Shown here one piece after another: positions 31,057 to 51,366 of a stretch of 58,810 bases of DNA. Positions within the stretch are counted from its first letter, which is position 1. Each line of letters opens with the position of its first letter. The stretch covers positions 1,713 to 60,522 of the forward strand of contig JAMCQB010000153.1 in assembly GCA_023382175.1 (NCBI GenBank), written 5' to 3'. The stretch comes from Nitrospirota bacterium (lineage in GTDB: Bacteria > Nitrospirota > Thermodesulfovibrionia > Thermodesulfovibrionales > UBA9159). Made by a program: the position numbers and the translations under genes. The notes under the pieces were generated by a model. The model ran no database searches, was not told where the DNA came from, and was given only the letters and a program-made list of their open reading frames with translations.

Positions 31057-31160
31057 ACATTCCTCCTCATTTCACCATTGGGATTAGTTATTGTGGCCGC
31101 TCGGACGAGCGTTGTTAACCCCTTTAAGATATCGCAACCGAATGGTTGCTGCAGTGTGCG

Positions 31161-31616
31161 TTAATAACTGATCAGGGCGTTCAGGAACTTCTCGTTCATC
31201 TGTCTGAGGTTTTTGCTCAGAACAAGAATAAGCCTCTTCATTATCTTTGATGCGAGGAGGAGGTCTTCATTCTCCATTCTCTCAAAATCCTCTTTCGGTA
31301 TGCACAGGACCACTGTATCTTCAAGGGAGACTGCATTCGCTTCGTGGATCCTGTGTTCGATGATCGAAAGCTCACCAAAGAAACTGCCCTTTGTCAGGAC
31401 TGCCAGTGTCTGTTTCCAGCCGTCAGGGGTGATCTTTGAGATCTCGACCTTTCCTGAATGTATGAGGAAGATGCCCTTTGTGTCTTCCTTTTCCCTGAAG
31501 ACATGCTCTCCCTTCTTGAAGGGGATTTCCTTAACCACGCCGGCCATTTTCTTAAGTTCCGAAGCATCAAGGTCCTCGAGAAGGATCTGTTCCTTCAGCA
31601 TTTCCAGGCTTACCAT
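31161..31616 (-). CDS. Stand-alone cyclic-nucleotide-binding domain protein (no HTH)
   Basis: GEHVFREK...SGKVEI...GSFFGELS...HEANA; ATG at 31616 after GGAGGTG; about 151 aa. Confidence 0.88.
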   Translation of the reverse strand: MVSLEMLKEQILLEDLDASELKKMAGVVKEIPFKKGEHVFREKEDTKGIFLIHSGKVEISKITPDGWKQTLAVLTKGSFFGELSIIEHRIHEANAVSLEDTVVLCIPKEDFERMENEDLLLASKIMKRLILVLSKNLRQMNEKFLNALISY

Positions 31617-31733
31617 GTCACCTCCGGGAGATATCTCTAAGTCTCTACTATATTTTAAAGAACGCAAATTTTCAAGGGGATTCTGCAAATCCCGGTTCAG
31701 GAAAAACGAAAGAAACGGACCGGTTCATCGGCT

Positions 31734-34436: not shown

Positions 34437-34438
34437 AG

Positions 34439-36235: not shown

Positions 36236-36698
36236 TGGATTCCTTTTTTTTCAATTCCTTGATGAGCTTTGAAGTGCTGTCCGCGGACATTTCGGCGTAG
36301 GCGCTGTTATTGACCAGGACCACGGGCGCGATACTGCAGGCCCCGACGCAACGTACGATCTCGAAGGTGAATTTCCCGTCTTCGGTTGTCTCCCCATCAG
36401 CGGCAAGGCCGAGGTCCCTTTGGATTCGTTCAGCGATCTTGCTCCCGCCCTTGACATGGCAGGCCGTCCCGCAACAGACGGAAACGATGTTCTTTCCCCT
36501 CGGTTTGAGATGGAATTGCGAGTAGAAAGTGACGACCCCGTAAAAACGGCTTGGCGGAATCTCAAGTTTTTCCGAAAAGTAATTGACCGCCTCTTCCGGG
36601 ATATATCCGAGGGCGTCCTGCGTCTCCTGAAGCAGGAATATGACATTGCCTTCCTTTTCCCTGTACTTTGTTATGATGCCGTCGAGAATGTCATTCAT
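36222..36698 (-). CDS. NuoE/HydC-like 2Fe-2S subunit
   Basis: VCCGTACHVKG...CVGAC..AP. Confidence 0.93.
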   Translation of the reverse strand: MNDILDGIITKYREKEGNVIFLLQETQDALGYIPEEAVNYFSEKLEIPPSRFYGVVTFYSQFHLKPRGKNIVSVCCGTACHVKGGSKIAERIQRDLGLAADGETTEDGKFTFEIVRCVGACSIAPVVLVNNSAYAEMSADSTSKLIKELKKKESSGTK

Positions 36699-36720
36699 AA
36701 GTTTGCCTTATGGGCGCATT

Positions 36721-36749
36721 ATTATAGTTAATTATCTGAATTTTTTCAA
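36721..36749 (-). promoter_or_regulatory. Sigma70 promoter for the nuoE2-nuoF2-fdhF unit
   Basis: Minus strand TTGAAA-17 nt-TATAAT, about 20 nt upstream of the ATG. Confidence 0.65.
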
Positions 36750-36787
36750 ACTCTTTTTTCAAACCCTTTTTTTAATACCGACCCGGG

Positions 36788-36817
36788 AAAAAAGCGCCCC
36801 GCCCGAAAAGGCGGGGC
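36788..36817 (-). terminator. Rho-independent terminator after the NuoG-like gene
   Basis: Minus strand GCCCCGCC-ttttcg-GGCGGGGC-gcTTTTTT. Confidence 0.8.
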
Positions 36818-36844
36818 AAGTGGAGGTCAGCCCGGTACAGAAAT

Positions 36845-38860
36845 CTATGCAAGCGCCTTTTCCGACTCTGTAAGCCAGAGGAGCCGTGAGCCATCAATAA
36901 CATGCATGTTCATTGACTGCATTATCTCATTCGTCGCTCCCTCAAGTTCTTCCCGGCGCGTAAAGGGATTGAAGGCAACCACCGGTTTCATTTTTGCGAG
37001 TTTCTTTGTTTCACTCTCTTTAGCCTCCTTCAGAGGCGTTCCCATTGCTTCTGAAAGGGCGACGAATATCTCCCGGTGGGATCTTGCCTCACCGGCGGGC
37101 TCGACAGCCTTGGCCAGCTGTTTCAGCCTTCCGAGATAGTCCACAATGGTGCCGTCCGCTTCGAGATATGCTGCTGCAGGCAGGACCACATCGGCCTGCT
37201 TTGCAATCTCTGTGAGATGAGAGGTCTGCACAATGAGAAAATCTGTGGAAGGTCTGCGACTCAGCGGAACTTCCCCTACTGCATAAAGAAGCTTCATGCC
37301 CTCCGTGGTCATCTCTCCGTAGGTCTTCCCTTCTTTCTTGATCCCCATGAGGATTATCCCTTTTGCATTGCTCTCCACAGGCATCGATACGGCAGCGCCT
37401 TTCAGGAGAGTCACGTTTGCGGCGGCCGGATAGAGGGCAGGGGACGACAGTATCACAGGGTTCTTGGCGCCAACAAAGAGCCCGGCCGCTGCCTCAACCA
37501 TCTCCGTAACCGGGGCGTCCGAGACTGCCGAAGCGAGTTCGCCGTCCGCCTTGATGCCTTTGTCCATGATTGCCTTCACCAGCGCCCTCAATGTCTCGGG
37601 CTCATCGCCCACAAGGTTAACCGCTGCGACTGATGAGATATTCGGCTCTGCAGAATTGATCGTGATCAGCTTTGCCCCTGCATTGACCCTTCTTCTGATG
37701 GTCGCATCGAGGGCAGGCAGCGCCCTTTTCCACTGGTTCGGATTGAGCCCCACAAGGACAAAGAGGTCTGCGGATTCGAGGTCAGCGCCCCCTGAGAGCA
37801 GCGTAGATTCATCGCCGTACAGGCTTGCGGTACTGTCAACGTTCTTCGTCTTTACCGCATCAGAGGCAAGCCTCTTCAGGGTCAGGGCGTCTTCATTAAG
37901 GATACCCGCCGGAGTGATGAATCCGGCATTCTCTCCCGCCTTCTTCATTTCCTTCGCAACGATTCCGAGGGCGTCTTCCCATGTTGTCTCCTGCAATTGA
38001 CCGTTTACGCGCTTCATGGGGACCCTGACCCGCGTGTCTGCCTCGATGCAGTCAAAGCCGAAGCGGCCATAAGCGCAGATGTATTTTTCAGGTGAACCGT
38101 CAGCGGCGCCCGCGTTTACTTTCACAAGCCTGCTGTCCTTTGTGCTCACGCTTATGTCGCAAGCGTTGCCGCAGAGGAGACAGACGGACTTTACCTTGTC
38201 ATAATCCCATTCCCTTCCCCTGCGCCACCTGTCGGCCTCGAGGAGGGCGTTCACCGGGCAGACGTCAACGCAACTGCCGCAGAATGTGCAGCCCGATTCA
38301 TGAAGGGGTTTGTCGTTTGCGGTAGTGACCTTCGAGCCCACGCCACGCCCCATGAATTCAAGGACATTCGTCCCCTGGTTTTTGCAGACCCTCACGCACC
38401 TTCCGCAGAGGACACAGTAGTCAGGATCCCGCTTGATGAACGGGTTCGCCTCGTCAATCGAGAAACCGAACTTCTTTCTCGTGAAATTCGACTCCTTGAT
38501 CTCGAAATCATAGGCATAATTCTGGAGGTTGCAGACACCGGCCTTCGTGCAGGTCATGCAGTCCAGGGGGTGCATCGAGAGGATGAGGTCTATCACGAAC
38601 TTCCTCGTCTCGAGGACCTTCTCCGTCTTTGTCCTGACCGCCATCCCTTCCTTCACCTTTGTTGTGCAGGCTATCATGGGGGCCTTCAGTCCCTCGACCT
38701 CGACCATGCACAACCGGCACGCGCCGATGCCTTTTAATCCCTTGAGGTAGCAGAGGTTCGGTATATGGATACCGCCAAGCTCTGCCGCATCGATAAGGTT
38801 CATCCCCTCGGGGGCATGGATCTCCTTGCCGTCTATCGTAAGCTTTATTGTATTTGCCAT
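36845..38860 (-). CDS. NuoG/HylA/SfrA-like Fe-S protein with a degenerate molybdopterin fold (no Mo ligand)
   Basis: 2Fe-2S (IPNLC...GACRLC...C), HPLDC..C.....C, two 4Fe-4S motifs, CLLCGNAC...C. NVDSTASLYG replaces the NIDHCAR(L/Y)(C/U)H ligand loop. Confidence 0.88.
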   Translation of the reverse strand: MANTIKLTIDGKEIHAPEGMNLIDAAELGGIHIPNLCYLKGLKGIGACRLCMVEVEGLKAPMIACTTKVKEGMAVRTKTEKVLETRKFVIDLILSMHPLDCMTCTKAGVCNLQNYAYDFEIKESNFTRKKFGFSIDEANPFIKRDPDYCVLCGRCVRVCKNQGTNVLEFMGRGVGSKVTTANDKPLHESGCTFCGSCVDVCPVNALLEADRWRRGREWDYDKVKSVCLLCGNACDISVSTKDSRLVKVNAGAADGSPEKYICAYGRFGFDCIEADTRVRVPMKRVNGQLQETTWEDALGIVAKEMKKAGENAGFITPAGILNEDALTLKRLASDAVKTKNVDSTASLYGDESTLLSGGADLESADLFVLVGLNPNQWKRALPALDATIRRRVNAGAKLITINSAEPNISSVAAVNLVGDEPETLRALVKAIMDKGIKADGELASAVSDAPVTEMVEAAAGLFVGAKNPVILSSPALYPAAANVTLLKGAAVSMPVESNAKGIILMGIKKEGKTYGEMTTEGMKLLYAVGEVPLSRRPSTDFLIVQTSHLTEIAKQADVVLPAAAYLEADGTIVDYLGRLKQLAKAVEPAGEARSHREIFVALSEAMGTPLKEAKESETKKLAKMKPVVAFNPFTRREELEGATNEIMQSMNMHVIDGSRLLWLTESEKALA

Positions 38861-38879
38861 TCAGACCTCCTCTTAATAT

Positions 38880-38947
38880 GTTACACGTGACACGTAACGG
38901 CGTTATGAGTTTTTAGATTTTGGACGTCACGCATTACGCGTTACGAG
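38880..38947. repeat. Intergenic heptamer-repeat element (TTACGCG family)
   Basis: ttacacg-tgacacg-taacggcg-ttatgag ... tcacgca-ttacgcg-ttacgag. Confidence 0.7.
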
Positions 38948-38953
38948 TTTTAT

Positions 38954-39556
38954 TTATACGCCTACCGCCTTTTTCTTCTTTGCCTCAACTATTACGATCG
39001 CTTCCGTGGGACAGACCTTCCTGCATTCGTCGCATTTGACGCACTTCTTCTGCCGTATCTCGAAGGGCGGATAGCCGCTATGGAAGGGCTTTTTCTTCTG
39101 CCCGAAGATCGCATGGTACTTGCAGGCATCGAGGCAGATCCCGCAGTTGTCGCATTTGTCGGGGATTACCCGGTACTCGATGAAAGCAGGGCACTTCATC
39201 GATGGGCAGATGCCACCGATATGCTTGTCATATTCATCCGTGCTCATCCATTGGAGGACAAATTTCGCGGTATCTTTCCCCTTCTTGCACATCGAGGATT
39301 CGAGCATGTCCCCCGCGATCCTCTTCAGCGCCCACAGGTCTGCTTCCCTGCCCCTGCCGTTTACGATGGTCTCGAGCCTTATCCTCGCTTCGTAGCTTCC
39401 CATGGCGCAGGGGAAACACCTTCCGCACATGGGACCTGCAAGAAACTCCGTCATGTAGTAGAAGGCTTTCTGCACGGGGCAGCCCTTTCCCTCGGCAAGC
39501 GTTCTTATCTCTTCAACCTTTAGCTCTCTCTTCTCGGTTGCACTTTTTTCAGTCAT
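38954..39556 (-). CDS. NuoF Fe-S-binding-region protein with two 4Fe-4S clusters (no flavin domain)
   Basis: CPV...MCGRCFPC...SMCKKG...H..G.CP...C, CDNCGIC...C, CVKCDEC...CP. Confidence 0.85.
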   Translation of the reverse strand: MTEKSATEKRELKVEEIRTLAEGKGCPVQKAFYYMTEFLAGPMCGRCFPCAMGSYEARIRLETIVNGRGREADLWALKRIAGDMLESSMCKKGKDTAKFVLQWMSTDEYDKHIGGICPSMKCPAFIEYRVIPDKCDNCGICLDACKYHAIFGQKKKPFHSGYPPFEIRQKKCVKCDECRKVCPTEAIVIVEAKKKKAVGV

Positions 39557-39565
39557 GCCTTACCT

Positions 39566-42029
39566 CTAATAGATATCCTCTGCCATATAGATAACCTCGG
39601 GCAGCAGGTAGGAAACCAGGTCCCTGTAAGAGACCATGCCGATGATCTTCTCGTCTTCCATGACGGGGAGATGTCTGATCTTCCTCTCCGACATCACCGT
39701 GATCGCCACACTGATGTCCGTCGAGGAGTCAAGGGTTATAGGTTTGGGGGTCATGATGGTTGCCATCGTCTCTTCCTTGAAGTTGATGTTCTTCGCAAAA
39801 CAGTGCATGATATCCCTTTCAGTGAAGATTCCGGCCAGCTTCTCGTCGTCGTCAAGGACCAGGATGGAACCGACATTCTGGCCGTCCATGACGGTCACCG
39901 CATCGGCGACAATACAGGTTGTCTTGCAGGTGACCATCTTTGACGGTTTCGCTTTTAACAGATCCTTTAATGTCATTCTCGCTCTCCTTTCGAGTATCTC
40001 GATTTTTTCAGGAGGCACTCTGAACTGCTCCTCGAGTTTCACGATACTCTCTTTTCTTATTTTGACCGCACCGATGGGACACGCGTGGAAGCATGCCTTG
40101 CATTTTGTGCAGGAATCCTGATCGATAAAGAAGCGTTCCCTCGTCTCTTTCACCGCGCCATAGGCGCAGGCCTGTTTGCAGAGCCCGCAGCTGAAACACT
40201 CGGCAGAATTGATCACAAAGACGCCCGTGCCTCCGCAGATGTTCGCCCTGCAGTACTTTCCATAGATGTGCTCTTCGTATTCATCCCTGAAATACTTGAT
40301 CGTGCTGAGGACCGGGTTTGGGGCTGACTGGCCGAGACCGCAGAGAGACCCCTTCTGGATTTGTTTTCCCATCTCGATAAGCCTCGCGATATCGCCGTGT
40401 TTGCCTCTGCCGCTTGTGATATCTTCAAGTATCCGGAGCATCTGGTAAGTGCCGATCCTGCACGGGGGGCACTTCCCGCAGGATTCCGACTGGGTAAAGG
40501 AGAGGAAGTATTTTGCCACGTCCACCATGCAGGTGTCCTCGTCCATGACGACCATGCCCCCGGAGCCCATCATTGAGCCGACCTTCCAGAGGGAATCGAA
40601 GTCTGCCGGCAGATCGAGAAGGCTTGCCGGCATGCAGCCCCCCGAAGGTCCACCGGTCTGGACTGCCTTTATTTTCTTGTCATTCAGCACTCCGCCACCG
40701 ATGTCGAAGATGATCTCCCTGAGCGGCATACCCATCGGGACTTCCACAAGTCCGGTGTTCTTGACCTTGCCGGTCAGAGCAAAGACCTTTGTGCCTGGAG
40801 AGGTCTCGGTCCCGATACTTCTGAACCAGTCCGCTCCTTTTTCTATTATCGGAGGGACACAGGCATAAGTCTCTATGTTGTTCAGGTTGCTGGGATATCC
40901 CCACACGCCTCCGCCGGGCTCGGAGAGTCTTGGCGGGCGGGGCCTCGGGAATCCCCTTTCGCCCTCGATCGAAGCAACAAGGGCAGTGGACTCGCCGCAG
41001 ACGAATGCACCCGCACCCTCTCTCACGTCAAGGTGAAAACTGAAATCCGTTCCGAGGATGTTCCTGCCGAGAAGCCCCAGATCTTCGGCCTGACCTATGG
41101 CATGTTTCAGGTTTCTTACCGCAAGGGGATATTCATGCCTCACATAGACGAATCCGAAGGACGCCCCGATGGCATAGGCACAGAGGAGCATCCCTTCGAA
41201 GAGACTGTGGGGATCGCCTTCCATGATCGACCTGTCCATGAAGGCGCCGGGGTCGCCTTCGTCGCCGTTGGCAATGACGAATTTTATGTTCCCGGGTGCG
41301 CTCTTTGTATGCATCCATTTCTTTCCGGCGGGGAACCCTGCGCCGCCTCTTCCCCTGAGGTTTGCCTTATCGACCTCGTGCAGCACATCATCAGGAGTCA
41401 TGGAAGACAGTGCCTTTTCCAGAGCGGCATATCCCCCAACAGCGATATAGTGATGGATGTTGGTAGGGTCGATCTTATCATTATTCCTCAATGCAATCCT
41501 CACCTGCTTTTTGTAAAAGGGCAGATTGAGCATCTCCGGGATAGGATCGCTCAGGATGTCTTCCCGGTAAAGGGCTTCCCTGAACGGTGTGCCTGCGACA
41601 AAGGTAGAGCTTATGAGCCCTGATGCATGCTCGGGTTTCACTCGCTGATAGAAAATCTCCTGAGGCTCTGTCTTCCCGGTAAAGGGCTTCCCTGAACGGT
41701 GTGCCTGCGACAAAGGTAGAGCTTATGAGCCCTGATGCATGCTCGGGTTTCACTCGCTGATAGAAAATCTCCTGAGGCTCTGTCTTCATGATCGGACCCT
41801 TCTGGCACATGCCCTGGCACCCTGTCTTGATGATCTCGATTCCCAGTCCCTTTTTCCTGGCCTCGTCTTCAAGGGCGTGAATAACCTTGGACGAACCTGA
41901 AGCAGTGCATGCGGTGCCGCAGCAGACCCTTGCCCTTTCCCTGTCAGGCTGAAAGACCTCCGATGCAAGCCGTTCTCTCAACCTCCGTAAATCCTCTATG
42001 TTCTGTAACCTCTCCATCCGGAACTCCAT
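39566..42029 (-). pseudogene. NuoF/HydB-like flavin subunit with a C-terminal CBS pair, frameshifted by a 112-bp tandem duplication
   Basis: ORF 41481-42029 (N-terminal VCCGTAC...TGCQGMC) plus ORF 39566-41713 (GRGGAGFP, GDEGDPGAFM, CGESTAL, GGPSGG, 4Fe-4S, CBS motifs GIFTERD and IRHLPV). Deleting one repeat copy gives one 783-aa ORF. Confidence 0.85.
41557..41787. repeat. Exact 112-bp tandem duplication bounded by TGTCTTC microhomology
   Basis: 41557-41668 equals 41669-41780; TGTCTTC occurs at 41557, 41669 and 41781. Confidence 0.95.
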
Positions 42030-42030
42030 T

Positions 42031-42513
42031 CTATTCTTTCACCATTGTGACCATCTTGTTGATCTTCTCCTGATCGATCTCGCCCACAACCTCCTCATTC
42101 ACGGTGATTACCGGTGCGAGACCGCAGCAGCCGACGCACCCCACGGTTTCGAGGGTCATCGATCCATCAGGAGTCGTTTCCCCTTCCTTGACCCCGAATT
42201 CCTCTTCGAGATTCTGGAGCACCTTTGAAGCGCCTCTTACGTGACAGGCAGTTCCCACACAGACACAGACGATGTTTTTCCCTCTCGGCTTAAAATAGAA
42301 ATGCCTGTAGAACGAGGCGGTGCTGTATACATCAGAAAGAGGAATATCGAGATTCCTCGAAAGTTCCCTGAGTTCGTCTTCGGGAAGATAGTTATGTTCC
42401 TTCTGTATCTTCTGAAAGGCGTGGATGAGAAGTCCCCTCTTCTTTTGATCTTCGCTCATAACCTCACCGACGCCTCTGTAGAATTCCTCGACGTTCATCC
42501 TATCCACGGGCAT
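42031..42513 (-). CDS. NuoE/HydC-like 2Fe-2S subunit (second copy)
   Basis: VCVGTACHVRG...VGCVGCCGLAP; RBS GGAGG. Confidence 0.92.
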   Translation of the reverse strand: MPVDRMNVEEFYRGVGEVMSEDQKKRGLLIHAFQKIQKEHNYLPEDELRELSRNLDIPLSDVYSTASFYRHFYFKPRGKNIVCVCVGTACHVRGASKVLQNLEEEFGVKEGETTPDGSMTLETVGCVGCCGLAPVITVNEEVVGEIDQEKINKMVTMVKE

Positions 42514-43366: not shown

Positions 43367-45298
43367 TTATGCCCGCGAGTCCTTCAGTTCAAAGATTTTC
43401 ACTTCCCTTTCCTTGCCTTTCACTTTCGCGGATGCAAGTTCCTTTACCGCCAGATGCCCAAACAAGCCATTCTTTATGAGGGGTTCTATATATGCAAAAG
43501 TATTTTCTGTGATAAGGATCCTCGTACCGTATTGCCTTGTTAATTTCTCTACCCTGGCTGCAAGATTCACATGGTCTCCTATTACCGTATAATCCATCTT
43601 CTTCCCTGGTGCTCCGATATTCCCTATCAGAACTTCACCGCTATTGATCCCTATGCCGACATCAAGGACATCAGTACCTCTCTGCCTCCATATCTCCTGC
43701 AACTTTGTCAGTTTCTCTGACATGTCAAGGGCGCATCGTAAAGCGAGCTCGGCGTGATTTGGTTGCTCTATGGGTGCGCTCCAGAGCGCCATGATCTCAT
43801 CTCCCACAAATTTATCAAGGGTCCCGTCCCATTTGAATATGATATCTGTCATCTCGTGAAAGTATTCATTAAGGAGGGAGACGACTTCCTCTGGCTGTCT
43901 TTTTTCGGAAAGGGAAGTAAATTCGATGACGTCCGAGAAGAGCACGGTCACCGTCCTCCTTACGCCGGAAAGAGTGGCCTTTTCCGGATTTTCGACGAGC
44001 TCTTTCACGATCTTCGGGGATACATAGCTCGAAAACATCTGGCGTATCTCCTTTGCCTTCTTTTCTTCATGGACGAACCTTATGACCGTCAAAGTGACAA
44101 AAATGGTAAACATGTTCGTGCCCGGATAGAGGAGATTTGCCCAGAGATTATGGTATACGAGCAGATAGCAGCAGACAAAGATATAGAGGAGTATGAAACC
44201 GGTGGCAAGGAAGGCACTGGAAATAGCCTTTAATCTTGGAAGAGTTAATCCAAGAATAATCCCGGTGAAGATAATAGCGATCAACTCAATAACACCGGGG
44301 CTCTTTTTTATAAAATTGTTTAAGAGAATGTTATTTACGACATTCGCATTCTTCTCCACTCCCGGCATATTGCCGGAAAAGGGCGTCACCTTCTGGTCGT
44401 AGGTGGCAAGGGCAGATGTCCCGACGAGGACTATCTTGTCTTTTAAGACATCAGAGGGGACTCTGTCTTTGAGCACATCCGAGGCAGAGATATAGGGAAA
44501 ACTTCGCTCTTTTCCCCTGTAATTTATTACGGCCCTACCGTACAGATCGGTGGAGATAAACGCACTGCCAAGACCTATCCCGGAGCCGCCGTAGAGGATC
44601 ATGTCTTTCATAGGAATGCCCAGGGCGACTCTCGCGATCTGGAGAGCAAACTGCGGATAACAGTCTTCACCGTAAGAAAGAGAAAGAATCTCCCATCGCT
44701 GAGATCCATCCATATCAGGCAGGGTATAGACATGACCGAGCGCTGCGACTGTGGAGATTTCGGGCAAGGAGGGCTTAACCTTTTCCGCCTTAACCGCAAA
44801 GTCCTTCCACTTAATTCCTTTTTGGCTTCTTACCTCCATGAAGGCAGAGTCCCAGAGAAAATCAGGGACTTCCTTTGGAGAACCGGCGACTGTCCTGCCC
44901 TGAGGGACCTCAAAGGCTGTGGCCAGTACTACGTTGTCCGCCTTTTTTATCGCTTCTGCAAGTTTTTCGTCTTTCTCAGGACTCTCCCTTTCGGTGAACA
45001 TAACATCGATGCCTATAACCTTAGGTCCTGCAGCCGAGATCTTATTCACAAGCGCTGCCATAACATCCCTCCCCCACGGCCATCTGCCTATTTCCCCGAT
45101 GCTTTTGTCGTCGATGGCAACGACGATAATATCCTTTGCCGGAGGCTGCTCCTTTATAAGGTTCCTCAGCCGGAGCCTGAGATCATAGGTTTTGCTTTCC
45201 AGATGTTCACGGATTATCAGGGGATCTTTAAGCTGCAGAACAACAAAAAACAGTGTGGAAAGGAAGGGGATAAGATAAAGCCAGAGCCTCTTCTTCAT
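43367..45298 (-). CDS. CHASE2-domain membrane adenylate cyclase (class III)
   Basis: CHASE2 motifs IDDKSI..IGRWPW.R and PGVE; three TMs; catalytic VLFSDV, DKFVGD (Lys suggests ATP) and YTVIGD.VNLAAR.E. Confidence 0.93.
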   Translation of the reverse strand: MKKRLWLYLIPFLSTLFFVVLQLKDPLIIREHLESKTYDLRLRLRNLIKEQPPAKDIIVVAIDDKSIGEIGRWPWGRDVMAALVNKISAAGPKVIGIDVMFTERESPEKDEKLAEAIKKADNVVLATAFEVPQGRTVAGSPKEVPDFLWDSAFMEVRSQKGIKWKDFAVKAEKVKPSLPEISTVAALGHVYTLPDMDGSQRWEILSLSYGEDCYPQFALQIARVALGIPMKDMILYGGSGIGLGSAFISTDLYGRAVINYRGKERSFPYISASDVLKDRVPSDVLKDKIVLVGTSALATYDQKVTPFSGNMPGVEKNANVVNNILLNNFIKKSPGVIELIAIIFTGIILGLTLPRLKAISSAFLATGFILLYIFVCCYLLVYHNLWANLLYPGTNMFTIFVTLTVIRFVHEEKKAKEIRQMFSSYVSPKIVKELVENPEKATLSGVRRTVTVLFSDVIEFTSLSEKRQPEEVVSLLNEYFHEMTDIIFKWDGTLDKFVGDEIMALWSAPIEQPNHAELALRCALDMSEKLTKLQEIWRQRGTDVLDVGIGINSGEVLIGNIGAPGKKMDYTVIGDHVNLAARVEKLTRQYGTRILITENTFAYIEPLIKNGLFGHLAVKELASAKVKGKEREVKIFELKDSRA

Positions 45299-45341
45299 GA
45301 ATAAGATTATACAGGTTCAAGACAAAAAATAAGAAATGAAG

Positions 45342-45367
45342 AAAAAAGGGTGCCGTTTACGGAACCC
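45342..45367 (-). terminator. Probable terminator after the FecR-like gene
   Basis: Minus strand GGGT-t-CCGT-aa-ACGG-c-ACCC-TTTTTT. Confidence 0.6.
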
Positions 45368-45429
45368 CTCAAAGTGTATCTATTCCCCTTGCCAGACTTA
45401 CCGCCGTCCCTTGTCCCTTAGCCCCATCA

Positions 45430-46332
45430 TTAATCTACGGGGGCCCCCCCAGGCCCATTATAAGGTGGTGGAGGCGGAGGATATATGTCCGGCGGAGGCG
45501 GTGGAGGTGGTGGAGGCGAAGGTGGTGGAGGCGAAGGCGGCGGTGGTGGAGGCGAAGGCGGTGGTGGTGGAGGTGGCGGTGGAGGAGGCGGTGGTGTTAC
45601 TGACTTTGGGGCTATGGGCGCTTGGTCACCGCGAGGCACGAAAACATCTTCAGCAGTACCCTCCAATTTGGCAGGACCAGGTCCCCAAATCCGTATTTCT
45701 TCGAAGTCGATATCTCTCAGGAGTTCCTCAATTTCCGCGTCAGAGGCCGGCGATGGCTGCGGAAGGGGCTCTCTCTCACATACCTCAATCTTGAACCGCG
45801 GTTTAAGCACCCGTAGTCCTTTGATATTGGTGTCAGGGCTGGTGACGAACACTTCCTTTTCAGTCTCGGTAGTTATCAGTTTGCTGCATATCTTTCCATC
45901 GATTTTTCTCACATGATAGAGAATGATAGTCCCCCTTGCTGCGGCCACCGCAGTGGGTGTCTGGACCTCAAATTGGGTTTTCCCGACAACCGACTTCATT
46001 TTGCCGTCGATGAGATTGAAGATGGACTTTCCGCCTTTGTCCTTGGCGTAAAGGAATTCTTTTATTACTACCTTCGATTTTTCTCCCATACTCAGGACAC
46101 TGTCGTCAGCAAAGAGCAGCTTTGCCCTGGAAGCCTCAAGGGTCGATACGGAATCCTTCAGGAGTATCCCGTCCTTTACCTTGGCATCTATAATCCTGTT
46201 ATCACGTTCGATGACTGTTTTACCTCGAAGGGCAACTACCGTGCCTACCTCATCCTTTGCCATGACAATGTCTGACAATCCCACAATGGAGAGGGTAATG
46301 ACAAGAAGTGTTATCAGTTTCAAGACTTTCAT
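45430..46332 (-). CDS. Secreted FecR-domain protein with a poly-proline C-terminal tail
   Basis: Signal peptide; FecR-like D...T...SRAKL.F.D.SVL.MGE.S, FEVQTPTAVAAARGT; Pro-rich tail. Confidence 0.85.
   Translation of the reverse strand: MKVLKLITLLVITLSIVGLSDIVMAKDEVGTVVALRGKTVIERDNRIIDAKVKDGILLKDSVSTLEASRAKLLFADDSVLSMGEKSKVVIKEFLYAKDKGGKSIFNLIDGKMKSVVGKTQFEVQTPTAVAAARGTIILYHVRKIDGKICSKLITTETEKEVFVTSPDTNIKGLRVLKPRFKIEVCEREPLPQPSPASDAEIEELLRDIDFEEIRIWGPGPAKLEGTAEDVFVPRGDQAPIAPKSVTPPPPPPPPPPPPPSPPPPPPSPPPPSPPPPPPPPPDIYPPPPPPYNGPGGAPVD
45464..45595 (-). repeat. Low-complexity poly-Pro coding tract
   Basis: GGTGGTGGAGGC(GAA) units on the + strand encode P-runs punctuated by Ser on the minus strand. 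Confidence 0.9.
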
Positions 46333-47628
46333 CTAAAACCTCGCATTCAGGAAAAGACTTGTTATTGCCCGTTTATAGTCGAAGACTGCCGTATTCGATT
46401 TGTTCCTCGTATAAAGCTGTCCCACGGTTACGCTGTATCGTTGTGACAAGAGTTTTGTGGCGGAAACAGAAGCGGTATATACATTGTCCTTCCTGTTATC
46501 GCCTGGTAACTGGAATGCGCCTTTGTAATTCTTGTGGTAGTAGTCGCCGTGAAGGTCGAGATATATGCTCCTGGGCAGTGAGAACTGTATCGCAGCAAGA
46601 ACTTTGTCGCCCCTGTAACTCCAGAACTCCTGCCTCGTAGAATCTACGTCATGGGAATAACTAACCCTTGCGAGAACAGAAGGGGGGAGAGATATGTTCT
46701 GCGTTATCGCCACAAGGTTATTTGAGCCGGTTCTCTCTGCGTTGTTGAAGAAGAGATCCGAGTTCATGAAATGGGACTTCTTGTATTTATATTCTATCAC
46801 TGTGGAATATCCGTTCCCTTCAGAAACGATGAGTGCAGGGGAGAGGGAATACGCGGAAGCGAAATTGTTCCCTCCTATGAAGCTATACTCAAAGGCGCCG
46901 ATGCCCCTCAGGCTCAACTGAGGGGAAAGAGCATGGGTTGCCCTGAGATCCAGTAAGTGAGAGGAGACGTTAAAGTCGGTGAGTTTGGCGTGGAGGCTCT
47001 GATAAAGACTATAGGCAACGGAAGCTTCTGCCTGATCCGTCTTCACAAAATCATATCTGCCTTTCAGGTAAAGTACGGCCCTCCAGTCCGATTTTCTCGA
47101 TATTCCCTGGGGGAGGGCGCCTTCAGCTCCGTTGAGGACCACATTGCTGTCATATTGAGTTCCCAGAGAGACATTTAACATCCATGGCTTCGCACCTCCC
47201 TCTAACGCAGCGACCCTCAGGTATTCTTTTGCCATTGCTGAAAGATCAGTGTTCGGGGCAGCGGCAATCGTCCTATTGAAATAATCCGCTGAGGTATTGT
47301 ACGCAGCTTTGTTGAAATAGTAGATACCCAGCTCAAGGGAGGCGCGGGCGTCTCCGGGCTTCATGGCAAGGGCTTTCTTCAGGGTCGTCTCGGCCTCGTT
47401 ATCTCCGGCACGACTCTGGGCTATACCGAGATAAAGGGTTGTCGTGAAGTCCCCCGGGCTGTCTTTCAGTGCAGATTCAAATTCAGTAATGGCCTCACGG
47501 TAATTTTTCGCTTCAATGTCTGACACACCCTTTGCGATATGCTGCTCATACGTTGTTTCAGAAGCGTAGGAAAAAGACGACAGAAGCACAAAAAATGCGG
47601 TCATTATTACGACAGTATAGTTTCTGAT
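46333..47628 (-). CDS. TPR plus outer-membrane beta-barrel protein (Slam/DUF560-like)
   Basis: Signal peptide, TPR helices, YDSNV, alternating beta-strand pattern, terminal Phe (LNARF). RBS AAAGGAGGTG precedes ATC at 47628; the nearest in-frame ATG is 47604. Confidence 0.8.
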   Translation of the reverse strand: MRNYTVVIMTAFFVLLSSFSYASETTYEQHIAKGVSDIEAKNYREAITEFESALKDSPGDFTTTLYLGIAQSRAGDNEAETTLKKALAMKPGDARASLELGIYYFNKAAYNTSADYFNRTIAAAPNTDLSAMAKEYLRVAALEGGAKPWMLNVSLGTQYDSNVVLNGAEGALPQGISRKSDWRAVLYLKGRYDFVKTDQAEASVAYSLYQSLHAKLTDFNVSSHLLDLRATHALSPQLSLRGIGAFEYSFIGGNNFASAYSLSPALIVSEGNGYSTVIEYKYKKSHFMNSDLFFNNAERTGSNNLVAITQNISLPPSVLARVSYSHDVDSTRQEFWSYRGDKVLAAIQFSLPRSIYLDLHGDYYHKNYKGAFQLPGDNRKDNVYTASVSATKLLSQRYSVTVGQLYTRNKSNTAVFDYKRAITSLFLNARF

Positions 47629-47717
47629 GGCACCTCCTTTTTTGAGCTTAATTATAAGGAAATTATATTGTTTGTCAAGGGAAAATTCCCCATAACCCGG
47701 TTGGGGGAGAAACCGGT

Positions 47718-48485
47718 TCATATCCTGATGGTCTCCCCGTCTCTTAACAAGCTCAGGTTTCTGATGCCCAAGTTCTTGAGTTCGGTTCTGATTGTCCTGA
47801 AATACTGAGGTTTCGTATGGGTAATGTATATCTTTTCGGGTAAATGCTTTACCTTTGAGAGTTCTTCCTTTAGTAATCGGCTGGTGAGATGGCCGGTCAT
47901 GAGGGCGGTCTCTTTCATCCTGTTGGGAAAGGAGACCTCTATAATGAGGCAGTGAATCTGCCTGTCTCCAAGCTTTTCCCATGTTGCATCGGTGGGGCCT
48001 GTGTCGCCGGTGTAAAAAAACAGTTTTCCGTCACGGTCTTCAACCAGATATCCCACCGCAGGAACGGAATGGTTGACTTTGTAAGGCGTTACCGTAAAAT
48101 CATTGATCCTCATGGAACAGCCGTCCCGGGCGGCGAGAAACTTCAGCACGCCGTTTCCGGGGCCTGGGATTATGGTGAAGTCAGGCCAGACCTGTCCGTT
48201 GAGGAGATTCTCCCTGATGGTCTTTATCACCTGAGGGATACTTATGATATTCACTTTGCATCCCTTGTTCTTTATGAGGAGGTTGTCCGCGAGGAAGGGG
48301 ATACCCCTGATATGGTCCAGGTGTGCATGGGTGATAAAAATATTTCTTATCTTTTGCTGCCCGCTTCCGTCCAGCACATTGGTCAGGCTCCCCGCATCAA
48401 ACAGGATTTCATCATCAAGGAGGAAGCCGGGGGGATTATGGCCGGGGAATTCTGCGCCTGAACATCCGAGGACCCTGATCTTCAC
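47718..48485 (-). CDS. 3',5'-cyclic-nucleotide phosphodiesterase (class II / metallo-beta-lactamase fold)
   Basis: VLGCSG, DAGS, THAHLDH, VWPDF, VNHSVP, TGDTG, EVSFPN, GHLT, THTKP. Confidence 0.88.
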   Translation of the reverse strand: MKIRVLGCSGAEFPGHNPPGFLLDDEILFDAGSLTNVLDGSGQQKIRNIFITHAHLDHIRGIPFLADNLLIKNKGCKVNIISIPQVIKTIRENLLNGQVWPDFTIIPGPGNGVLKFLAARDGCSMRINDFTVTPYKVNHSVPAVGYLVEDRDGKLFFYTGDTGPTDATWEKLGDRQIHCLIIEVSFPNRMKETALMTGHLTSRLLKEELSKVKHLPEKIYITHTKPQYFRTIRTELKNLGIRNLSLLRDGETIRI

Positions 48486-48488
48486 GAC

Positions 48489-49577
48489 CTAAAAGTTTCC
48501 TTCATGATAGGACTTGATGAACGCATTGACCACATCAGGATCAAACTGGGCACCTGCATACCTCCCCAGCTCTTCCAGAGCAGCCTCAGCGCTCAGTCCT
48601 TTTCTGTATGGTCTGTCCATGGTCATTGCATCAAAGGTGTCTGCCACTGAAATGATCCTGGCGATGACCGGGATCGTATCTCCCTTCAGCCCTTCGGGAT
48701 ACCCTGACCCGTCATACTTTTCATGATGCCACTTCACTCCCGGTATGATATCCTTCAGCTGCCTGATATGGTTCAGTATCTCTGCTCCGTACACGGCGTG
48801 CATCATTATTGCATTATATTCCTCAAAGGTCAACCGTTCATTCTTGAGCAGGATGTTATCCCTGACGCCGATCTTTCCGATATCGTGGAGGATGGCGGAG
48901 AGCCTGAGGTCGATCATGTCCTTCTGTGGCAGCCCCATGGCCTTTCCGATGGCAAGGCTGTAGTTCATCACCCGCTTTGTGTGTCCGCTCGTATAGGGAT
49001 CCCTTTTCTCAATGGTCTCCGCAAGGGCGTGTACAGTTGCATAAAAGGTTTCCCTCAATTCGTCGTAGAGCCGTGCATTCTCGATCGCAACGGCGACCTG
49101 ATTGGAGAGGGCGGTGAGAAGCTCCCTGTCCTCGCTTTCAAACTGCCCGTGCCTTTTGTTGATCGCCTCCAGCACCCCCACAAGTTTGGCCTTTAACTTT
49201 ACCGGGAGACAGATCATGGTGCGTGTCTCGAACTCGCTTTTCCTGTCAGCATCCTTAAAGAACCGCGGGTCGTTCTGCACATCATTGATGATCACCGGTT
49301 CCTGATGTTCCGCCACCCAGCCGGCAATCCCCTGACCTTTCTTAAGACATATGGTCTTTATGGATTCCCCCTTTTCTCCCAGCGCCACATCAAAATAGAG
49401 ATCCCCTGTTTCCCCGTCGAGAAAAAGAAGGCTTCCTGTCTCTGCATCCGCGAGCCGCACCGCTGCCTCTATTGTCCTTTTCCTGATTTCCGTTACGTCC
49501 AGGGATGAATTGATCAGTGCGGACAGCTCTATCAGGGTGTTGATCTGCAGCGTTCTTTCAGGGCTGTTTATGGTCAT
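48489..49577 (-). CDS. GAF plus HD-GYP phosphodiesterase
   Basis: GAF (GQGIAGWV, DPRF, NK); HD-GYP (DPYT.GH..RV, LHDIGKIG, HHEKYDGSGYP, RPYR). ATG at 49577 is preferred. Confidence 0.92.
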   Translation of the reverse strand: MTINSPERTLQINTLIELSALINSSLDVTEIRKRTIEAAVRLADAETGSLLFLDGETGDLYFDVALGEKGESIKTICLKKGQGIAGWVAEHQEPVIINDVQNDPRFFKDADRKSEFETRTMICLPVKLKAKLVGVLEAINKRHGQFESEDRELLTALSNQVAVAIENARLYDELRETFYATVHALAETIEKRDPYTSGHTKRVMNYSLAIGKAMGLPQKDMIDLRLSAILHDIGKIGVRDNILLKNERLTFEEYNAIMMHAVYGAEILNHIRQLKDIIPGVKWHHEKYDGSGYPEGLKGDTIPVIARIISVADTFDAMTMDRPYRKGLSAEAALEELGRYAGAQFDPDVVNAFIKSYHEGNF

Positions 49578-49720
49578 CCTGGTCAAATTGTAGCATAAAT
49601 CTACCGTGACGTAACCGCTGTTTTTTCGCAGCATCACTCTGTCCGCTACCCGTGTTACGTGGATGTGAGAAGAGAAAGAAATAGGTTGATAATGGGAGGA
49701 CTCAGGCACATAATAATGGT

Positions 49721-50899
49721 ATGGATATAAATAATGTAAGGGAGGCGGTTCTCAGTCATCCCCTCGTTTCACGAATAGTAAGTGCAGAGAGAGAGGTCTT
49801 CCTCGTTGGCGGATATCTCAGGGATCTCCTGCGAGGGATAAGGTCCAGGGATATTGATTTTGTGGTGAGGGGTGACCCGGGGAGCATGGTGTCAATGATC
49901 TTTCCGGAAGGGGAGGGAAGCGTCATTGCATTCAGGGAAACCCTCCTTGTGAGGGTGGTTGTTGGCGATACCACCGTGGACTTTTCAGAACTGAAAGGAG
50001 AGATTGAAGACGATCTCTCCCGCCGGGATTTTACCGTGAACGCCATTGCATGGTCTCCGGAAAGAGGGCTCATCGACCCGCTGAAGGGAGTCAGCGATAT
50101 CGAGAAGGGCAGGCTCAGGGGCATCTCGGAGAAGAACTTTATGGATGATCCCCTGCGCCTTCTCAGGGCATACCGCTTTGCAGCTGAACTGGGATGGACC
50201 ATTGATCAGCGAACGAGAAGAATAATTAGGAAGTTAAAGCAATCCATTAAGGTGTCTGCCACTGAAAGGATCACTTTAGAATTATATAAATTGTTAAACT
50301 CGGGGGGTTCTTTCAATGCCCTGAAACAGGCATTGAAAGACGGCCTAATGGAAGAAATTATAGCTATAAATTCCGGTAAGTTAAGAGAAAATATTAAAGC
50401 TCTTTCGAGATTAAATTCGTTCCTTAAGAAGATACCTGAAGAATTGAGGTCCGATCTTGATAACACTTTCTCACAGGGGTTGTCTTTAATCGGCCTTCTC
50501 AGGGCAGAGCAGCTTCTTTATGGATCAGATATCCACAGGAGCAATCTGAGCCTGAGCAGGGCAATAGTGAAGAGACTTGTTGTCACGATGAAGCTTCTGG
50601 ATACGTATAAAAAGAAAGAGGATTTGAATGATTCAGGAATCTTCGACCTGTTTGCCGGGGCAGAGGATGCGGTCATGGATTTTGCCTTGCTCACGAAAAA
50701 AATGAGATTCCTCAAGAAGGTTGAGAGATTTCTGCAGGTTCGCTCTGTGTTGGCTGCAGAGGAGGTCATGAGGGTAACAGGTCTCGAAGCCGGGCCAGAA
50801 CTGGGCCGTGTCTTGCACGACATGAGGAAGCTGCAGTTTCTCGGAAAGATTAAGGATGAGGAAGGTGCAAGAAAGTGGCTGCGTGGCAGGGGTGATTGA
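49721..50899 (+). CDS. Class II tRNA nucleotidyltransferase, probably CC-adding
   Basis: VGGYLRD, DIDFVV, EDDLSRRDFTVNA, DDPLRLLRAYRF, ERI..E. The flexible loop before the DL.RRDFT motif appears absent, and there is no HD domain. Confidence 0.85.
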   Translation: MDINNVREAVLSHPLVSRIVSAEREVFLVGGYLRDLLRGIRSRDIDFVVRGDPGSMVSMIFPEGEGSVIAFRETLLVRVVVGDTTVDFSELKGEIEDDLSRRDFTVNAIAWSPERGLIDPLKGVSDIEKGRLRGISEKNFMDDPLRLLRAYRFAAELGWTIDQRTRRIIRKLKQSIKVSATERITLELYKLLNSGGSFNALKQALKDGLMEEIIAINSGKLRENIKALSRLNSFLKKIPEELRSDLDNTFSQGLSLIGLLRAEQLLYGSDIHRSNLSLSRAIVKRLVVTMKLLDTYKKKEDLNDSGIFDLFAGAEDAVMDFALLTKKMRFLKKVERFLQVRSVLAAEEVMRVTGLEAGPELGRVLHDMRKLQFLGKIKDEEGARKWLRGRGD

Positions 50900-51048: not shown

Positions 51049-51366
51049 GTGAATAACCAGGAGAGAACAGAACGCAGAAAGCACAAGAGACTTCCTTTTA
51101 GAGAAGACATTCTGGTAGACGGCACGAAATTGTGTACAAGCACGGATATAAGCGAAGGCGGTCTTTTTGTTTCTGCGATTCAATATTTTGAAGAGGGTAA
51201 CGTGGTTGAGGTTACCATTCCTCTCGGTGAAGAGAAGATAACGGTTAAAGCGCAAGTCAAATATTGCCAACCAGGAATTGGTGTGGGGATTGTGTTTATT
51301 GAGCTGAATGATGAGCAAAGAACAAAAATTAGGGAATTAGTTGAGAGCATTGCGAAGTCTGATTAG
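51049..51366 (+). CDS. PilZ-domain protein (c-di-GMP receptor)
   Basis: ERRKHKR (RxxxR) and DISEGG (DxSxxG). Confidence 0.9.
   Translation: MNNQERTERRKHKRLPFREDILVDGTKLCTSTDISEGGLFVSAIQYFEEGNVVEVTIPLGEEKITVKAQVKYCQPGIGVGIVFIELNDEQRTKIRELVESIAKSD

Follow-up and report, generated by a model that had tools for sequence, protein, structure and literature searches.

Two described systems place a CHASE2 class III adenylate cyclase beside envelope proteins with FecR and tetratricopeptide repeat (TPR) domains. In Sinorhizobium meliloti, the envelope protein NsrA is required for a proteinaceous signal from the plant to act through the cyclases CyaK and CyaD1/CyaD2, and the available text places its β-barrel at residues 600-1200, with only the loops exposed (PMC7529298, PMC13001267). 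In Campylobacterota, a cluster of a CHASE2 cyclase, a cyclic AMP (cAMP) phosphodiesterase (PDE), a FecR protein, and a TPR protein has been proposed as one pathway that spread horizontally (Mo et al., mBio 2022, PMC9239204). Here we describe a related five-gene cassette in a 58,810-nucleotide (nt) stretch of DNA, hereafter the window, from a Nitrospirota bacterium of the order Thermodesulfovibrionales (contig JAMCQB010000153.1, positions 1,713 to 60,522, assembly GCA_023382175.1). The gene cluster itself is not new, as the published passages on these two systems already contain the module (PMC9239204; NsrA-CyaK). We read the cassette as a split envelope input of the NsrA-CyaK type that would feed the only class III cyclase detected in the genome and that is flanked by a cAMP-removing enzyme and a GAF-regulated HD-GYP protein, and we give this reading a probability of roughly 0.55.

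The cassette occupies 6.3 kb of the minus strand (43367-49709) and is transcribed in the order GAF-HD-GYP protein, class II PDE, TPR-barrel protein, FecR protein, and CHASE2 cyclase, the last four gene types all lying inside 5.2 kb (Table 1). An earlier note, made from the letters of the window, had described five co-oriented genes of this content with neither an extracytoplasmic function (ECF) sigma factor nor a TonB receptor nearby. A Pfam scan of 54 open reading frames (ORFs) of the window bore this out, with the expected domains and intact catalytic motifs across the five genes and neither an ECF sigma nor a TonB receptor domain among the ORFs scanned.

The cyclase matched CHASE2 (E = 6.5e-63) and Guanylate_cyc (E = 3.3e-25). 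One N-terminal hydrophobic segment is followed by a CHASE2 domain of ~310 residues (about 24-336), three hydrophobic segments, and the catalytic domain, an arrangement that would place CHASE2 in the periplasm and the catalytic domain in the cytoplasm. Residues D456, K496, D500, T571, N578, and R582 were invariant across an alignment of 31 cyclases; we take these to be the two metal-binding Asp, the Lys/Thr substrate pair of class IIIb, and the transition-state Asn/Arg. Within the CHASE2 domain, E34, D39, R41, D63, W75, R77, D98, D110, D195, D197, and R201 were among the conserved positions. Domains, hydrophobic segments, and invariant residues agree with the predicted inner-membrane CHASE2 adenylate cyclase that had been proposed. 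The genome of the organism (2.85 Mb, 86.8% complete) had a single match each to CHASE2 and to PF00211, both in the cassette cyclase, which appears to be the sole cAMP source of the organism unless another cyclase class is present.

The two genes transcribed first encode different kinds of phosphodiesterase. The first protein matched HD_5 (HD-GYP, PF13487; E = 5.5e-40) in addition to GAF, carries the HD-GYP signature motifs HDIGK and HHEKYDGSGYP, and aligned over its full length to its solved homologue PmGH of Persephonella marina (4mcw; E = 1.3e-57, residues 49-401). Its start is ambiguous among three codons (Table 1), and 4mcw aligns from residue 49. What sets the loci found here apart from PmGH is that their GAF-HD-GYP gene is coupled in the genome to genes for a cAMP PDE and a CHASE2 cyclase. 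The GAF domain of the cassette protein most closely resembles the cyclic nucleotide (cNMP)-binding GAF domains of PDE5, PDE2, and CyaB2, and cross-talk from cAMP to cyclic di-GMP (c-di-GMP), as the earlier note had suggested, is plausible on that account; the link between cAMP and this particular GAF domain is what we infer from the similarity.

The PDE gene starts 3 nt past the stop codon of the HD-GYP gene. Its product scored 56.9 bits against PDEase_II (PF02112; cut-off, 23.7), also matched the metallo-β-lactamase (MBL) fold, and has no signal peptide. The translation contains THAHLDH, and we take HxHLDH to be the signature motif of class II cyclic-nucleotide phosphodiesterases. The closest solved relative was yeast PDE1 (4ojv, E = 1.9e-8).

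The third gene was first seen as an ORF of 549 aa (46333-47982) that contains TPR repeats and weakly matches the BBP2_2 barrel model (E = 2.5e-4). In the AlphaFold model of the protein (predicted local distance difference test [pLDDT], 91.2), seven TPR helices (18-133) precede 14 strands (141-422) and a terminal Phe, and in fold searches the barrel domain matched CymA (Z = 23.0) and OmpG (Z = 20.6). The 265 nt that the ORF shares with the PDE gene are spurious, because the open frame runs on upstream of the true start. The true protein begins at, or slightly upstream of, ATG 47604 (423 aa), immediately before the signal peptide, and an AGGAGG box and a 12/12 sigma-70 consensus sit between the PDE stop and that signal peptide. 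ATG 47604 is not conserved, being ATT in the related loci L001 and L002, and L002 has no ATG, GTG, or TTG able to yield a signal peptide. Behind the GGAGG box, at a distance of 4-5 nt, lies an in-frame ATC in the window (47626-47628, minus strand) and in L002, or ATA in L001. Since the ATG is unconserved and ATC or ATA follows the GGAGG, a non-AUG start at ATC 47628 is likely.

The start codon (ATG) of the FecR gene directly abuts the stop codon of the barrel gene. The FecR protein (Pfam FecR, E = 1.6e-11) has a predicted cleavable signal peptide, cut between IVMA and KDE, and no lipobox. It carries neither an N-terminal anti-sigma domain nor a membrane anchor, the FecR domain following straight after the signal peptide. 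In its model (pLDDT, 82), a beta-rich fold (28-195) is followed by a short helix and then by a disordered linker and a run of prolines (244-290). Among solved structures, it was closest in fold to 6ovk, the cell-surface-signalling domain at the C terminus of PupR, and to 4m0h, the anti-sigma protein BDI_1681, with Foldseek values of E about 1e-5 and TM scores of 0.51-0.54 against 6ovk_R and 4m0h. The model thus resembles the periplasmic domain by which PupR contacts its outer-membrane partner.

Relatives of the cyclase, sought in a single genome for each species, defined 80 loci, the best relative being 85% identical. These loci (numbered with the prefix L) came mostly from Nitrospirota/Thermodesulfovibrionia, Syntrophorhabdia, and other Desulfobacterota metagenome-assembled genomes (MAGs). 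Partner families were counted with hidden Markov models (HMMs) iterated on the ORFs of the related loci, and the counts include some TPR-only and other-MBL matches. Among the 79 loci with a cyclase ORF, FecR was found in 36, the barrel HMM in 31, both in 28, the MBL/PDE HMM in 37, GAF/HD-GYP-like ORFs in 26, and none of these in 18. Where at least 5 kb was available on both sides (n = 33), the corresponding figures were 19, 17, 16, 17, and 10. Pfam verification, which took 57 of the 65 candidate PDE/GAF ORFs and omitted eight fragmented or edge-cut ORFs of L067, L068, L070, and L077, identified PDEase_II in 25 loci and GAF plus HD_5 in 14. A same-strand barrel ORF lay directly upstream of 29 of 44 FecR ORFs (gaps of -4 to 260 nt, eight of them ≤1 nt), and the tightly packed HD-GYP-PDE pair recurred in L001, L015, L021, and L048, each of which holds all five families. 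Barrel, FecR, CHASE2 cyclase, and class II PDE genes are therefore a recurrent unit; the neighbourhood analysis that the earlier note had called for refutes the notion that they do not co-occur elsewhere.

The barrel was also tied to CHASE2 at the level of whole genomes. With a barrel-only profile, searched in 151 sampled genomes of the phylum, strong matches (E <= 1e-25) were obtained in 32 genomes, every one of which belonged to the 82 that encode CHASE2, and in none of the 69 CHASE2-negative genomes. Fifteen weaker matches (1e-9 to 1e-18), 14 of them in CHASE2-negative genomes, look like another family. In 16 of the 32 barrel-positive genomes the barrel gene lay within 10 kb of a CHASE2 gene. 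These related genomes are not independent of one another, but the 32 span about 20 genera. The barrel family is phyletically dependent on CHASE2, and strictly one way.

In the organism's own genome, the one strong class II PDE match (the sole strong match of its HMM) and the one full-length barrel of the family both belong to the cassette, as does one of three FecR genes; there are also eight cNMP-binding domains and 15 GGDEF matches, 14 of them above the cut-off. Because the genome's only CHASE2 domain, class III cyclase, class II PDE, and full-length barrel, together with one FecR gene, lie within 6.3 kb, the idea that the five genes are unrelated chance neighbours is extremely improbable. 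The flanking PilZ, CCA-adding enzyme, and YbaK-like genes are not conserved beside the cyclase, as a chance arrangement would predict, but the recurrence counts and the phyletic profile refute chance as an account of the five genes, and the linkage has been published twice, on the available text of those reports (PMC9239204; NsrA-CyaK). A second module was looked for in the genome and rejected: of the other FecR genes, one lies in an LPP20/FlgT_N/CsgG-like cluster and one carries DUF6600, and a match of the barrel HMM on contig C30 is a TPR-only protein, not a second barrel. The former cluster (C23:38342-43380, L096) encodes a FecR domain fused to LPP20, two LPP20 lipoproteins, an FlgT_N protein, and a CsgG-like outer-membrane channel, and is a different envelope assembly that likewise uses the FecR fold.

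Table 1. Features of the cassette and of two genes outside it (window coordinates)
Feature	Position	Strand	Basis
GAF-HD-GYP phosphodiesterase	48489..49709	-	Pfam GAF + HD_5; start GTG 49709, ATG 49634, or ATG 49577
Class II (MBL-fold) cyclic-nucleotide phosphodiesterase, predicted cytoplasmic	47718..48485	-	Pfam PDEase_II
Sigma-70 consensus promoter-like site, TTGACA-16-TATAAT	47651..47678	-	12/12 consensus; between PDE stop and barrel start
Predicted outer-membrane TPR + 14-strand barrel protein	46333..47628	-	AlphaFold model, family Pfam matches, start-codon comparison
Predicted secreted, soluble FecR-fold protein	45430..46332	-	Pfam FecR, signal peptide, predicted model
Poly-proline tail of FecR protein (residues 244-290)	45463..45603	-	Mixed Pro codons
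Terminator-like hairpin, then U6CUU	45345..45370	-	RNA fold; inside the 131-nt FecR-cyclase gap
Predicted inner-membrane CHASE2 class IIIb adenylate cyclase	43367..45298	-	Pfam CHASE2 + Guanylate_cyc
Small cNMP-binding protein, candidate cAMP receptor	31161..31688	-	Pfam cNMP_binding; outside the cassette
PilZ-domain gene, neighbour only	51049..51366	+	Pfam PilZ, E = 2.2e-13

The likeness to NsrA-CyaK extends from gene order to domain content. On pSymB, nsrA encodes 1,200 aa (FecR, 66-160; TPR, 378-587), its stop codon overlaps the start of cyaK, and CyaK has the same architecture as the cassette cyclase, CHASE2 plus a class III catalytic domain; in both cases the cyclase gene directly follows the envelope gene or genes that supply FecR, TPR, and barrel. 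With hhalign, the FecR family of the window aligned to NsrA 56-212 (probability, 97.6; E = 3.7e-12), and the TPR region of the barrel-protein family aligned to NsrA 422-580 (probability, 96.3). Because these alignments tie both FecR and TPR to NsrA, the cassette is, as judged from sequence comparison, the domain content of NsrA in split form, two genes for one, with barrels that did not align. In NsrA a single chain begins with FecR, whereas the cassette encodes a separate secreted FecR protein after the TPR-barrel gene; the cassette barrel is about 280 aa with 14 strands, compared with residues 600-1200 in NsrA; the two cyclases are only about 29% identical; and a class II PDE and a GAF-HD-GYP protein are encoded in the cassette in addition. 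When longer, fused versions of the barrel protein were sought, six matches came back, all TPR-driven and none NsrA-like, which is weak evidence.

The Campylobacterota cluster combines the same four gene types, as described in the available part of PMC9239204, but it comes from a different phylum, the closest relatives of the cassette being Nitrospirota/Thermodesulfovibrionia MAGs. That report calls the FecR protein outer-membrane, whereas in the cassette the barrel belongs to the TPR protein and a soluble FecR protein is predicted, and the passage on the cluster mentions neither an HD-GYP partner nor a poly-proline tail (PMC9239204).

Two further FecR systems share single features with the cassette. 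FecR/PupR cell-surface signalling likewise pairs a periplasmic FecR fold with an outer-membrane protein, but it works by sigma-factor release with an ECF sigma and a TonB transducer, neither of which is in the window, and the predicted output of the cassette is cAMP. The Burkholderia BiofilmReg operon (response regulator, LysM-FecR, CHASE2 histidine kinase, DUF4136) also sets a secreted FecR protein beside a CHASE2 sensor; as far as it is described in the available text, it differs in its histidine kinase output, in the LysM domain on its FecR protein, and in having no TPR-barrel gene (PMC5192318).

The earlier note had called the mechanism poorly resolved, which is correct. The few papers found name neither a CHASE2 ligand nor an activation mechanism. 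In the reading that we prefer, the TPR-barrel protein and the soluble periplasmic protein with the FecR/PupR fold, encoded by translationally coupled genes, would form the outer half of a sensor, and this half would govern the inner-membrane cyclase through its periplasmic CHASE2 domain. Such a relay from surface to cytoplasm would depend on physical contacts among the three proteins, on a signal that runs inward, and on a ligand. The cAMP formed would be read by cNMP-binding proteins (eight domains in the genome, one of them encoded in the neighbouring formate-dehydrogenase operon) and removed by the co-encoded cytoplasmic class II PDE. It would probably also bind the GAF domain of the HD-GYP enzyme and so be coupled to hydrolysis of c-di-GMP (or cGAMP). 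The poly-proline tail of the FecR protein could serve as a rigid spacer spanning the periplasm.

Slam/DUF560 proteins combine an N-terminal TPR region with a C-terminal 14-strand barrel. This is also the predicted architecture of the cassette barrel protein, and it raises the alternative that barrel and FecR protein are a type 11 secretion system (T11SS), or Slam-like, pair, in which the barrel exports the FecR protein or anchors it at the surface as an adhesin or antenna. The link to the cyclase would then arise either because the surface FecR protein is the sensor or because cAMP merely regulates its production. We consider this possible, if rather unlikely. Type 11 systems (DUF560; PF04575 SlipAM and PF24575 TPR_Slam) likewise join a periplasmic TPR region and a 14-strand barrel to an adjacent partner gene, the barrel and FecR genes are translationally coupled, and members of the barrel family matched TPR_Slam (23/29) and SlipAM (13/29; best E = 5.1e-8) as well as BBP2_2 (25/29). 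The window's own barrel protein, however, matched neither SlipAM (PF04575) nor TPR_Slam at E <= 1. Its fold searches returned generic barrels (BcsC, CymA, and OmpG) and TPR proteins, and no Slam structure was listed among the results, so these searches say nothing on Slam membership. The FecR partner also argues against a Slam-like pair: T11SS cargo has a C-terminal 8-strand β-barrel domain (TbpBBD/lipoprotein C) as its hallmark, according to the available text of PMC12282271, whereas the cassette partner has a FecR fold without such a domain, and this predicted fold is of the type that binds outer-membrane proteins in the periplasm. NsrA, moreover, fuses FecR and TPR to its barrel, of which only the loops face outward in the published account seen here (PMC7529298). 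The cargo survey, in its available text, has no mention of 'cyclase' or 'CHASE' (PMC12282271), and in the literature searched we found no paper joining DUF560 and FecR.

Variation at the C terminus of the FecR proteins is more in keeping with export or display. Most small FecR homologues end in the conserved motif PPhxQxP...PVxhxhxF, the last part of which is strand-like; only in the window, L001, and L010 is it replaced by 32-47 prolines in mixed codons. In seven close relatives, a further gene, for a secreted protein, separates the FecR gene from the cyclase gene (L002:7596-8897, L005:6236-8863, L011:7144-8868, L020:5477-6862, L056:4223-5581, L078:3765-6197, and L003:930-1724); the window, L001, and L010 have no such gene. 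These extra genes encode fn3 repeats or DUF1565/NosD-type beta-helix, CARDB, or IgGFc-binding-type domains. Three long FecR partners, beside which no barrel gene could be seen (L041:2471-4819, L054:11180-13633, and L031:6258-7523), have tails resembling PEP-CTERM/VPLPA-CTERM, as if exosortase-type anchoring took the place of the barrel; the NCBIfam PEP-CTERM-like matches were weak and under the curated cut-offs, with none for L054 at E <= 0.05. LipL45 and Lsa33, two surface proteins of Leptospira, also gave weak matches.

Metagenome contigs pointed in the same direction. In run X6, contigs matched the cyclase and 47057-49758 at about 97-100% identity and did not cover the N-terminal part of FecR or the C-terminal part of the barrel (45687-47056); parts without contig cover were not counted as evidence. 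One 2,949-nt contig of this run diverged exactly at 47057, and a close strain with nearly identical flanks may thus have a strongly diverged barrel/FecR pair, or something else in its place. Within the poly-proline coding stretch (45516-45572), three contigs from two runs showed in-frame skips of 45, 51, and 54 nt, but these rest on flanks of 20-24 nt, are possibly repeat artefacts or from other organisms, and have no evidence value. Variable FecR C termini, together with a strain divergent only in the barrel/FecR segment, hint at diversifying pressure, and this keeps secretion or surface display alive as an explanation.

A combination of sensing and display is also conceivable, though unlikely: a translocon derived from Slam/T11SS may have been recruited for signalling, such that it threads or displays a FecR 'antenna' whose variable C terminus (a conserved β-strand motif, a PEP-CTERM-like anchor, or, in the window, a poly-proline rod of ~47 residues) sets its hold on the envelope and whose FecR head gates CHASE2. 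If true, this would be a cell-surface signalling route without TonB or an ECF sigma factor, would explain the input to the long-orphan CHASE2 sensors, and would give T11SS-like barrels a sensory role.

Signals within the cassette bear on whether the barrel and FecR proteins lie upstream or downstream of cAMP. The -35 hexamer of the promoter-like site ahead of the barrel gene, with its flanks, is kept in the closest relative, L001, and the same motif occurs in L002. The hairpin in the gap between the FecR and cyclase genes had a predicted energy of -12.8 kcal/mol (z = -2.5), and one of 200 shuffled sequences was equally stable. Ahead of the cyclase gene there is a conserved TATAAT (-10), and the window, L001, and L010 all keep TGTATAAT immediately upstream of the start codon. 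Because a promoter-like site precedes the barrel gene, and a terminator-like hairpin and a -10 element precede the cyclase gene, a single five-gene operon is disfavoured; the cassette probably consists of two or three transcription units (HD-GYP and PDE; barrel and FecR; cyclase).

Such separate signals would suit a reading in which the barrel/FecR pair is a target of cAMP rather than its input, with CHASE2 sensing something else, cAMP controlling an envelope or biofilm function of the two proteins, and the linkage reflecting co-regulation only. Many CHASE2 cyclases occur without the pair, as this reading would have it, and in S. meliloti the FecR protein SMc02177 and the TPR protein SMb20495 are described, in the text available, as Clr/cAMP targets dispensable for perception (PMC5498481). 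Set against this, the restriction of the barrel to CHASE2 genomes (32/32) is stricter than membership in a regulon would need, NsrA is needed upstream of CyaK in the part of the report seen (PMC7529298), and the envelope proteins co-vary more with CHASE2 than with the catalytic domain. On balance we judge a role as target distinctly unlikely.

The co-variation was measured as pairwise distances across the 26 loci that hold all three genes. CHASE2-domain distances correlated with those of FecR (r = 0.90), TPR (r = 0.92), and barrel (r = 0.91), and the respective values for the cyclase catalytic domain were 0.76, 0.81, and 0.81. The partial correlation of FecR and CHASE2 given the catalytic domain was 0.74 (permutation p = 0.001), and the converse was 0.19. 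This mirror-tree result is compatible with co-evolution of the envelope parts.

Several points weigh against an envelope input to the cyclase as we have drawn it. Mirror-tree correlations are confounded by shared ancestry and by a catalytic domain that is slower and saturates differently. Strong barrel matches were missing from 50 of the 82 CHASE2 genomes of the phylum, six of the 33 well-flanked loci carried none of the four partner families, and no barrel region was found anywhere in four of five genomes that have a cyclase of ~45% identity in a Crp-cyclase-PDE operon; these genomes are MAGs, in which absence of the barrel is not proven. When the barrel-protein family was compared with NsrA, a single sequence, hhalign matched up the TPR parts alone and not the barrels. 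The similarity of the barrel family to Slam/T11SS-type Pfam models suits secretion as well as sensing, the internal promoter-like and terminator-like signals point to separate transcription units, and NCBIfam ranked RNase Z models top for the PDE, all of them far under their cut-offs.

Because strong barrel matches are missing from 50 of 82 CHASE2 genomes and no barrel region was found in most genomes examined from the Crp-cyclase-PDE subgroup, the system has at its core the cyclase and PDE, frequently joined by HD-GYP and a cNMP receptor, and the barrel/FecR pair is an optional module with an input or accessory role. A subgroup of Nitrospirota loci (L022, L040, L042, L047, L063, L065, L067, L068, L070, L072, L079, and L080) shows the order cNMP-binding protein, CHASE2 cyclase, and class II PDE in direct succession, often with a GAF-GAF-HD-GYP gene further upstream, and neither a FecR nor a barrel gene within the sequence available. 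In seven loci (L013, L015, L018, L032, L035, L036, and L058), a GAF protein of ~285 aa recurs about 1.8 kb upstream of the cyclase; that of L013 also has weak PAS matches.

Candidate receptors of cAMP were found in the surroundings of the cyclases. Homologues of the small cNMP-binding protein of the window (E <= 1e-10) were present in 16 of the 80 cyclase loci, and in 11 of these the gene, for a protein of ~214 aa, ends or begins no more than about 120 nt upstream of the cyclase gene; the protein of L065 aligned to nearly the whole CRP model, under the cut-off. In the window itself, the cNMP-binding gene sits 12 kb off, in a formate-dehydrogenase/FTHFS operon, an arrangement found otherwise only in L001.

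The earlier note had further set the cassette next to a PilZ gene and to a single-carbon (C1) cluster with cNMP and CBS sensors. The PilZ gene is indeed about 1.3-1.5 kb away, but it had no homologue in the 80 related loci and was rejected as a member of the module. The YbaK-like and CCA-adding enzyme genes were likewise rejected, with zero and two matches, respectively, in the same loci. The cNMP-binding and CBS genes of the C1 cluster are present as described, the latter being a CBS-bearing NuoF-like gene (39566-41713) in the formate-dehydrogenase/FTHFS cluster, but the adjacency to the cassette is common only to the closest relative, L001. The formate dehydrogenase alpha subunit is split at an in-frame TGA (33360-33362, minus strand), between the ORFs 33360-34469 and 31734-33347; this TGA is most likely a selenocysteine codon within one selenoprotein of ~910 aa, judging from the sequence. 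The Slam-like barrel adjoins this cluster (29293-42513), again otherwise only in L001; T11SS barrel genes are often found near single-carbon metabolism genes, according to the available text of PMC12282271.

CHASE2 is a widespread extracytoplasmic sensor domain, and what this locus adds to the published module is supporting data and variant features (the poly-proline tail, the HD-GYP/PDE pair, and a probable non-AUG start). It is a compact, apparently complete example that unites the only detected class III cyclase with a cAMP-removing enzyme and a probable cross-talk enzyme. It also adds the one-way phyletic dependence of a barrel family found only where CHASE2 is present, and the evidence that NsrA, which has been studied, holds the domain content of both envelope genes of the cassette in a single chain. 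Together, the compact locus, the phyletic dependence, and the content of NsrA make testable the hypothesis that signals may pass from an outer-membrane TPR-barrel protein through a periplasmic FecR adaptor to CHASE2.

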